Shown: piece by piece, positions 47,992 through 48,249 of the stretch
Position numbering within the stretch: position 1 is the stretch's first letter
Layout: each line of letters starts with the position of its first letter
From: Patescibacteria group bacterium
Lineage (GTDB): Bacteria > Patescibacteriota > Patescibacteriia > 2-12-FULL-57-11
NCBI GenBank assembly: GCA_004297205.1
Contig: SCUL01000002.1
Coordinates: forward strand, 530,893-594,892
Direction of reading: 5' to 3'
Length of the DNA: 64,000 nucleotides
The notes under the pieces: model-generated
The model's input: the letters and a program-made list of their open reading frames with translations, nothing else
Databases searched by the model: none
Told to the model about the DNA's origin: nothing
Program-made: the position numbers and the translations under genes

Positions 47992-48020
47992 TTGACACGG
48001 AGGAAAGGCGCGCTTATATT
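47992..48020 (+). promoter_or_regulatory. consensus sigma70 promoter (TTGACA-17-TATATT)
   Basis: Sequence TTGACA cggaggaaaggcgcgct TATATT. It lies immediately after the terminator. Confidence 0.6.
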
Positions 48021-48026
48021 CGAGAG

Positions 48027-48249
48027 TGCTTCGCGCGCGCCAGGCTGCGAAGCGGGGAAGGCCTCCACAGTCCCGTTCGACGAGCCCCCGCGTGCACCGC
48101 GCAAGCGGTCCGGCGGGTTTCTCTCTCCTCGTTCCTCGGTCCGACCGCGGACCAGGAACTGCTCCGACGACTGGGCATGGGGAGACGCTTGGCCCCGGTT
48201 TGCAGCCTCCCGCGGACGAAGAAGCCGCCGGATTTTCCGGCGGCTTTTG
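48027..48249 (+). ncRNA. candidate small RNA or ftsK leader (about 220 nt), bounded by promoter and intrinsic terminator
   Basis: Starts about 7 nt after the -10. Hairpins include GCTTCGC..GCGAAGC and GGTCCG accg CGGACC. It ends at terminator gccgccgg atttt ccggcggc followed by ttttgc (48224-48249). No SD or ORF. The ftsK -10 TACCAT follows. Confidence 0.4.

Follow-up and report, generated by a model that had tools for sequence, protein, structure and literature searches.

A single-copy small RNA gene with an invariant, predicted unpaired CU strand near ftsK in Uhrbacteria-like Patescibacteria

Genes and features at the locus

The DNA analysed here (the window) is a 64-kb stretch of 68% GC from an 856-kb contig of a Patescibacteria group bacterium, and the element under study is a small RNA (sRNA) gene located at 48027-48248, between an operon of two orphan genes and ftsK. 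The host is one of the ultra-small candidate-phyla-radiation (CPR) bacteria, and the nearest relatives of the encoded FtsK protein are labelled Candidatus Uhrbacteria or Patescibacteria. All features in the window lie on the forward (+) strand unless stated otherwise. The loci of relatives used for comparison are numbered L001-L032, with L030 being E. coli K-12, 3055700-3056500, and contigs L013-L017 coming from the Hainich groundwater series.

The upstream operon consists of orphan gene 1 (45853-47256), which starts with the ATG at 45853 and encodes a Cys-rich protein of 467 amino acids (aa) with a low-complexity Ala/Pro-rich tail, and orphan gene 2 (47409-47909), which lies directly upstream of the sRNA element, encodes a protein of 166 aa (166/179 aa) and contributes the last stop codon of the operon, TAG 47907-47909. 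Neither of these proteins, of ~170 and 467 codons, matches Pfam or NCBIfam; the 467-aa protein has no match in the PDB, and just two homologues of the 166/179-aa protein were found among 5.8 billion proteins. A gap of 1.1 kb separates the first orphan gene from rpoB (41471-44740, reverse strand). The gene order orphan, orphan, element, ftsK, rodZ-like, recA is kept in the contigs of both orphan-protein homologues and of the closest FtsK relatives.

The sRNA gene has its own promoter and terminator

The 5' boundary of the sRNA gene is formed by two tandem terminator hairpins that close the upstream operon, at 47916-47943 and at 47947-47979, the second being followed by the T-run of CTTCTTTTT (to 47988). 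The original prediction had ended the upstream module in such tandem hairpins, and both are present in the sequence: the first was seen as a perfect stem by Rfam hairpin models, and the second is kept with compensatory changes in L010 and L012. Directly after these hairpins, the sRNA promoter is composed of a -35 box TTGACA (47992-47997), a 17-nt spacer and a -10 box TATATT (48015-48020). This TTGACA-17-TATATT promoter, also part of the original prediction, matches 11 of the 12 consensus positions and is the sole sigma-70-like site in the 6 kb from 45000 to 51000, where shuffled sequences give 0.4. In the alignment of seven syntenic homologues, the promoter hexamers are conserved and the spacer is variable, and TTGAC-N16-18-TAnnAT sites also precede the homologues in L001, L023, and L031. 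Transcription would, as judged from these boxes, start near 48027.

At the 3' end, the sequence and the minimum free energy fold both predict an intrinsic terminator at 48222-48248 (hairpin plus TTTT, 48224-48248), which reads GCCGCCGG-ATTTT-CCGGCGGC in the DNA and AAGCCGCCGG-AUUUU-CCGGCGGCUU followed by UU in the RNA. Terminator-like models of Rfam align to the 48222-48248 hairpin. The hairpin at 48224-48248 was not listed by a terminator scan, and we suspect that its stem may extend into the T-run. The clean intrinsic terminator that had been proposed about 220 nt downstream of the promoter is thus present, and most homologues are followed by terminators of other sequence, since GC hairpins of differing sequence with a U-run close those in L010, L012, L020, L023, L001, and L031. 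A promoter and a Rho-independent terminator are therefore predicted around a short non-coding transcript, as in trans-encoded sRNAs.

An insert was seen next to the gene in two relatives. In L018 (~2860-2990) and L019 (~2890-2990), a palindromic insert resembling a miniature inverted-repeat transposable element (GTCAT...GGGATCCCAATGG...CCATTGGGATTTCTC...ATGAC) is located between the sRNA and the ftsK promoter, where it stands in place of the usual terminator.

Homologues of the sRNA in related CPR bacteria

A covariance model, R1, was built from seven close sequences, and scored 187 bits at the window and 150-202 bits at the close homologues. In all, 10 further homologues were found in related CPR (Uhrbacteria-like) contigs, giving 11 distinct sequences. 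At the DNA level, the elements of the four closest relatives share 93%, 92%, 81%, and 79% identity with that of the window; for comparison, the identity in the closest relatives is 80-83% for ftsK and 57-77% for the upstream gene. The intergenic alignment comprises ~190 nt that hold the invariant blocks, and the terminator sequence differs among the relatives.

The regions upstream of ftsK in the distant relatives L001, L002, and L004 contain no such element, which at first suggested a very narrow distribution. This was overturned by a search of all loci with the invariant 10-mer TCTCTCTCCT, by which distant copies were located elsewhere in L001, L004, and L023. R1 scored these three copies at 44-64 bits (E = 1e-7 to 5e-12) on the promoter strand, and the copy upstream of ftsK in L031 at 67 bits. 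A 10-mer match in L002 was rejected as a homologue by the same model. In L001 and L023, the sRNA gene lies downstream of recA on the opposite strand, with its own promoter and terminator, and in L004 it lies 1.8 kb upstream of ftsK, also on the opposite strand and without a clear promoter. The other 8 of the 11 homologues are located directly upstream of ftsK on the same strand. The element is therefore directly upstream of ftsK in part of the clade only, and not in L001, L004, and L023.

R1 detected no homologue in the 10-20 kb around ftsK of L002, L003, L005-L009, L024-L029, and L032, a result that applies to these stretches and not to the whole genomes. A metagenome scan with a strict three-block pattern, which predates the distant homologues and was too strict, returned an already known contig as its sole match, and the 4 pattern matches from a scan of viral contigs were not confirmed by R1 and are attributed to chance. 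As far as the accessible data show, the sRNA family is restricted to one high-GC Uhrbacteria-like clade.

The sRNA gene is independent of ftsK

On its downstream side, the sRNA gene is delimited by the ftsK promoter and start, which comprise a -35-like TTGGCG (48252-48257), a -10 box TACCAT (48276-48281) and the near-leaderless ATG at 48291-48293. The sequence AGTACCATnCCGnnGTTATGGCC of this region is conserved in the relatives, and the conserved start of ftsK is ATGGCCAAG at 48291, 9 nt past the -10 box; the reading of FtsK from 48291 is confirmed by Pfam. Of the -10 box TACCAT and apparent leaderless ATG assigned to ftsK in the original prediction, the -10 box stands, whereas the ATG that overlaps it (48280) is out of frame, the true start being at 48291. 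In the relatives, a -10 box is found 7-10 nt before the ftsK ATG with or without the RNA upstream, including L001, L004, and L031. From these sequences, ftsK appears to be near-leaderless with its own promoter across the clade.

The original prediction had left two choices, an independent sRNA or an attenuating leader of ftsK. As a cis-acting leader or attenuator, the RNA would set ftsK expression by read-through or stop at 48222-48248, in keeping with its position directly upstream on the same strand in 8 of the 11 homologues and with the end of its terminator 28 nt before the ftsK -10 box. However, the homologues in L001 and L023, downstream of recA, and in L004, 1.8 kb away, are all on the opposite strand; unrelated inserts of 100-190 nt lie between the RNA and ftsK in L018, L019, and L021 (~190 nt in L021); the conserved -10 box of ftsK itself is kept whether the RNA is present or not; and the folds hint at no alternative antiterminator pairing. 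Neither the fixed upstream same-strand position nor the dependence on read-through of a cis-acting leader was thus found, and we regard this function as highly improbable.

A coding role, either as an N-terminal extension of FtsK from ATG 48177 or as a small protein, is scarcely credible. The frame is open from 48177 into ftsK, and NCBI annotates a 794-aa FtsK (P0004) that starts at this ATG, within the sRNA, and runs across the terminator, as compared with 756 aa from the conserved start. However, 5 of the 7 relatives (L010, L018, L020, L021, and L031) either lack ATG 48177 or have it out of frame, an in-frame stop is located 24 nt ahead of the conserved ftsK ATG in L010, and the gene calls in the relatives begin at the conserved ATGGCC. 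In addition, the extension would traverse the terminator hairpin, and the substitutions track base pairing, not codon periodicity. The region had been described as free of open reading frames (ORFs); in this 68% GC DNA, long spurious ORFs do cross it, and the start of the NCBI FtsK falls inside the RNA, but the frame concerned is not conserved.

These results indicate that the sRNA gene is independent and is not a leader of ftsK, because it is repositioned and on the opposite strand in three relatives. The independent sRNA of the original prediction is thus upheld by the conserved promoter hexamers, the covarying structure, the terminators and the location away from ftsK in L001, L023, and L004, while the -10 box that ftsK keeps and the inserts in L018, L019, and L021 speak against the attenuating leader. 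As in trans-encoded sRNAs, the gene is conserved as a unit apart from its neighbours among the 11 homologues, three of which are repositioned and inverted. On the sequence evidence, a small non-coding RNA of ~195 nt and its terminator are encoded at 48027-48248 by an independent gene, present in one copy, that has its own sigma-70-type promoter.

A covarying rod that exposes an invariant CU strand

The predicted 223-nt transcript folds with -131 kcal/mol (z = -5.98), and none of 200 shuffled sequences folded as well; the opposite strand is less favourable (z = -4.4). The hairpin-rich stretch of about 220 nt that had been noted was confirmed by this fold. The sRNA body (~195 nt, 48027-48221) is composed of a basal rod, a three-way junction and two hairpins, as judged from the z score, the folds and the covariance model R1. 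The 5' strand of the rod (48029-48086) includes the family-invariant CUGCGAAG at 48045-48052, and the 3' strand (48161-48221) includes the conserved UUUGCAG at 48199-48205, which pairs with CUGCGAA. Between the two strands of the rod are hairpin A (48087-48117), an unpaired C/U-rich element UUUCUCUCUCCUCG (48118-48131), which we propose as the seed or recognition element, and hairpin B (48131-48159), GUUCCUCGGUCCG-ACCG-CGGACCAGGAAC.

Essentially the same design was obtained when the 11 homologues were folded independently, namely an imperfect rod of ~45-55 bp formed by the 5' and 3' ends, an open CU strand, and one or two hairpins, in RNAs of 165-200 nt. Hairpin A, which precedes the unpaired strand in the sub-clade of the window, is variable: its cap is GCAA in the window and GAAA, GCAA or UUCG in the relatives, so that length and loop type vary and the hairpin stays, and it is missing in L001, L023, and L031. 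The distal stem of hairpin B covaries, with exchanges that include G-C to A-U and C-G to A-U, and its loop is UNCG-like in the relatives; in L004, another closure stands in place of hairpin B, and the apical arm is lost.

The covariation of the rod was measured for 41 pairs on a MAFFT alignment of 10 sequences. Of these pairs, 89.7% are canonical, as compared with 35-43% when the partners are slid, and changes on both sides are seen in 20 of the 41 pairs, as compared with 9.0 +/- 1.9 in shuffles. None of 500 shuffles attained any of the observed measures. One G.U pair is invariant in all 10 aligned sequences, indicating that the transcribed strand is the promoter-bearing strand, and seven consecutive rod pairs (CUGCGAA with UUUGCAG) are invariant in the same alignment.

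The unpaired strand at the tip of the rod, 13-15 nt with the sequence (A/U)UCUCUCUCCUCG, contains 12 invariant nucleotides. Its core, UCUCUCUCCU (48120-48129), is invariant in 11 of 11 homologues, despite overall identities down to 51-57%. In the predicted folds of every homologue, the mean probability of being unpaired is 0.68-0.93 for the CU strand, as compared with 0.26-0.31 for the whole RNA. Conservation applies to the exposed strand and not to its flanking frame. The rod and the exposed strand are the constant features of the RNA, because the hairpins vary in sequence, length and loop, and either side can be lost.

These constant features bear on the possibility that the RNA is a protein-binding scaffold or sponge, in which the CU strand and the CUGCGAAG/UUUGCAG helix would bind a protein specific for single-stranded pyrimidines (e.g., of the S1 or KH type) that the RNA would sequester or carry. 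The seven invariant pairs, including a G.U, amid freely covarying pairs suggest sequence-specific recognition of the helix, the motif is invariant over 12 nt, and the degree of structure of the RNA (z = -6) far exceeds that of most base-pairing sRNAs. Set against this, the motif occurs once per RNA, as compared with many times in known sponges such as CsrB, and no candidate protein emerged at the locus: no known domain was found in the neighbours of ~170 and 467 codons, nor do these genes accompany the RNA constantly. No constant protein neighbour was found in the homologous loci, the ~170-aa protein being recognisable only in the closest relatives and the upstream gene in L021 being unrelated. 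We consider a protein-binding role not very likely.

Searches against known RNA families and the comparison with 6S RNA

At the gathering threshold of Rfam 15, the only matches in the whole window were 4 tRNAs. At E<=10, stretches of 200-500 nt with the element from the window, L020, L001, and L031 gave terminator-hairpin and chance matches only. Signal recognition particle (SRP) RNA, transfer-messenger RNA (tmRNA) and RNase P RNA have no curated-model match at either setting. The lack of a match to SRP or 6S RNA in the original prediction is thereby confirmed by covariance-model searches, and the sRNA founds a family absent from Rfam 15. A permuted tmRNA had been considered because of the strings UUCGAC and CCUCCACA; no tmRNA was found by ARAGORN.

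A 6S analogue or a very divergent 6S RNA would be a rod that binds the sigma-70 holoenzyme via its open centre, with the CU strand as the template for a purine-rich product RNA (pRNA), 5'-GAGGAGAGAGA.... A closing stem between the 5' and 3' ends, an apical stem-loop and an open 5'-strand region at the junction in a rod of 165-200 nt fit the description of 6S RNA (PMC8876501), which is reported in nearly all bacteria (PMC8414754) and was not detected in the window. The strong housekeeping-type promoter, the single copy and the variable genomic position also agree with this identity. Known pRNAs start with purines, and a CU-rich template would yield a purine-initiated product.

In contrast, the Rfam 6S models had no match at E<=10 in the four homologues searched. 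Some likeness to E. coli 6S RNA was seen by eye (GCAAGCGGG, CAGUCCC, ACAGCCU); the best score of R1 on E. coli ssrS in the reciprocal search was 2.6 bits, indicating that this likeness is one of composition and chance. The open region is one-sided in the predicted structure of every one of the 11 homologues, with 13-15 unpaired nt in the 5' strand facing 0-1 nt in the 3' strand, whereas the central bubble of 6S RNA is open on both sides (5'-CB and 3'-CB) and carries a -10-like element in its 3' part (PMC8876501). E. coli 6S RNA folded likewise gave a two-sided bubble. The apical arm of the CPR sRNA is short (10-13 bp) and missing in L004, and a 12-nt invariant template is, to our knowledge, not a property of 6S RNA. 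Of the three 6S features tested, the ~200-nt rod with its closing stem and apical stem-loop (PMC8876501) is present, and the two-sided central bubble and the covariance-model similarity are not. Together, these observations make a 6S function quite unlikely.

In E. coli, ssrS lies directly downstream of the cell-division gene zapA, and the CPR sRNA likewise neighbours a cell-division gene, ftsK; this parallel is probably a coincidence.

A structured leader with candidate pairing sites

The exact 10-nt complement of the proposed seed occurs three times in the 64-kb window, as compared with 0.17 expected, and one of the three is the sRNA's own antisense. The other two, spaced by 200 nt, are found 2.7 kb upstream of the sRNA, where a gap of 1.1 kb separates rpoB from the first orphan gene. 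GA box 1 (GAGGAGAGAG, 45239-45248) is an exact complement of CUCUCUCCUC of the sRNA, and GA box 2 (45439-45448), which lies inside the invariant ACGCAUGGAGGAGAGAG, is an exact complement of the sRNA loop; both are candidate partners. This complementarity is suggestive of pairing.

Both boxes fall within a structured leader (45130-45852) with its own TTGACA promoter (45146), of which ~700 nt are conserved, apparently non-coding, and contain UUCG-capped hairpins. The leader comprises two tandem domains of ~165-200 nt, each opened by GGAGGAGAGAG, and is conserved in L010, L012, L018, and L019, where indels preserve the hairpins. Its longest invariant block is ACGCAUGGAGGAGAGAG, and the leaders of L010, L011, L012/13, L018, and L019 carry the GA-box 10-mer on their sense strand. 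The domain opened by box 2 is a covarying multi-helix structure of 58 predicted pairs, 12 of which show compensatory changes. In the predicted folds, the GA boxes contribute to the helices that close the two domains, box 2 pairing within the leader with UUCCCUCCA, a strand that resembles the sRNA seed. The leader has no Rfam match at E<=1 and looks like an undescribed riboswitch-like or large structured RNA.

A small palindrome, TCGAGCTnAGCTCGA, is inserted in a leader hairpin in L012 (4107-4121) and at the 5' end of the sRNA in L018 (2648-2662). It extends or adds a hairpin at these two unrelated sites, is absent from the window, and may be a tiny mobile hairpin insert.

The sRNA and the ~700-nt leader might form an RNA-RNA regulatory pair that switches the two intervening orphan genes. 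For such a pair, the leader would consist of two tandem domains resembling four-way junctions, each opened by GGAGGAGAGAG, and a 3' extension. Together with the 3' strand of hairpin A, which extends it, the CU strand would invade the helices that close these riboswitch-like domains, and the sRNA would thereby compete with the leader's own UUCCCUCCA strand. We consider this arrangement unlikely.

Discussion

The function of this sRNA, as distinct from the gene boundaries, conservation, strand, covarying structure, unpaired invariant motif and independence reported above, is inferred only. We tentatively propose, as a real but less than even prospect, that it is a trans-acting base-pairing sRNA with an anti-Shine-Dalgarno-like seed that works like Yfr1. 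The proposal follows from the Yfr1-like design of the RNA, in which an invariant, exposed, pyrimidine-rich CCUC strand lies between variable helices. Acting in trans, the exposed CU strand would pair with other RNAs at purine-rich sequences that resemble a Shine-Dalgarno sequence (GAGGAGAGAG) and alter the translation, folding or stability of these targets, and the stable rod and the tetraloop-capped hairpins would be the scaffold that keeps the seed exposed and the RNA long-lived. GA-rich Shine-Dalgarno regions may, by their sequence, be a general class of targets.

The extended purine-rich ribosome-binding site GUGGAGAAGAGAGACGCCAUG of the unrelated gene upstream in L021 (884-907) has one mismatch to the complement of the CU strand. 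A survey of Shine-Dalgarno usage based on ORFs was unreliable in GC-rich DNA and was dropped.

Several observations weigh against base pairing, which is, together with its targets, a pure inference. Because the seed never varies, an intermolecular covariation test is impossible. The length of the sRNA and its very extensive internal pairing are atypical of a base-pairing sRNA, and the seven invariant rod pairs (CUGCGAA/UUUGCAG) are unusual for a mere scaffold and hint at a sequence-specific protein or processing site. Within the leader, the GA boxes are themselves partly engaged in predicted pairs; a longer complementarity between the sRNA and the leader (the 10-mer plus CCCGCC) did not rise above shuffles in local alignments; and a duplex-energy scan of the window found several other sites equal to or better than the GA boxes. 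The leader and its boxes were seen in the closest relatives only, and no seed complement was found in the few kb each of L001, L004, L023, and L031.

Regulation in CPR bacteria, which cannot be grown alone, is essentially unknown, and our literature search found no described sRNA of these (Patescibacteria) bacteria. The RNA gene described here has clear boundaries and is supported by covariation, and its 12-nt invariant exposed strand is an obvious functional element. It corrects a public annotation that placed the start of FtsK inside the RNA, and it points to a further structured RNA at this locus, which is larger and also lacks annotation. If the sRNA were the CPR counterpart of 6S RNA, a near-universal regulator would be extended to a lineage in which no such RNA has been observed. 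Pairing with the neighbouring leader, if it occurs, would provide an unusual example of a riboswitch-like structure as the target of an sRNA, and the leader, the genes and the sRNA would form a self-contained cassette of one CPR clade with two undescribed classes of structured RNA.

Among known RNAs, 6S RNA (ssrS; RF00013 and relatives) shares with the CPR sRNA a ~200-nt rod with a closing stem formed by its ends, an apical hairpin, an open 5' stretch, a housekeeping promoter and a single copy. The CPR sRNA differs in that its opening is one-sided with neither a 3' bubble nor a -10-like element, its apical arm is short or dispensable, and its single-stranded motif is invariant; no covariance-model similarity was found in either direction.

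Exposed C/U-rich anti-Shine-Dalgarno motifs are functional in the NfeR1/alpha-r14 'cuckoo' family and in RsaE/RoxS. LhrC, likewise, functions through exposed C/U-rich motifs with complementarity to ribosome-binding sites (PMC5880928). These sRNAs usually carry two or three short copies of the motif in hairpin loops, whereas the CPR sRNA has one 12-nt motif in a junction or bulge, on a scaffold that is larger and partly conserved in sequence.

Yfr1 is defined by two stem-loops split by 16-20 unpaired nucleotides with the ultraconserved ACUCCUCACAC, and base pairing to conserved RNA targets was proposed as one explanation for the conservation of this motif (PMC2190773). It pairs with the ppa mRNA and with the sRNA Yfr2, a conserved RNA partner that bears a nearly complementary motif (PMC6778093), whereas the targets of the CPR sRNA are candidates. 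The two RNAs belong to different phyla, and the CPR sRNA has no Rfam match to Yfr1. The cyanobacterial RNA has 54-69 nt, with its motif between a 5' hairpin and the terminator, whereas the CPR sRNA has 165-200 nt, with UCUCUCUCCUCG atop an additional long rod; by its length, motif and rod it is not a member of the Yfr1 family and resembles it in design only. This likeness consists of an ultraconserved pyrimidine-rich motif with CUCCUC that is single-stranded between stem-loops free to vary, and, in both RNAs, of an own promoter, a Rho-independent terminator and conservation across the clade.

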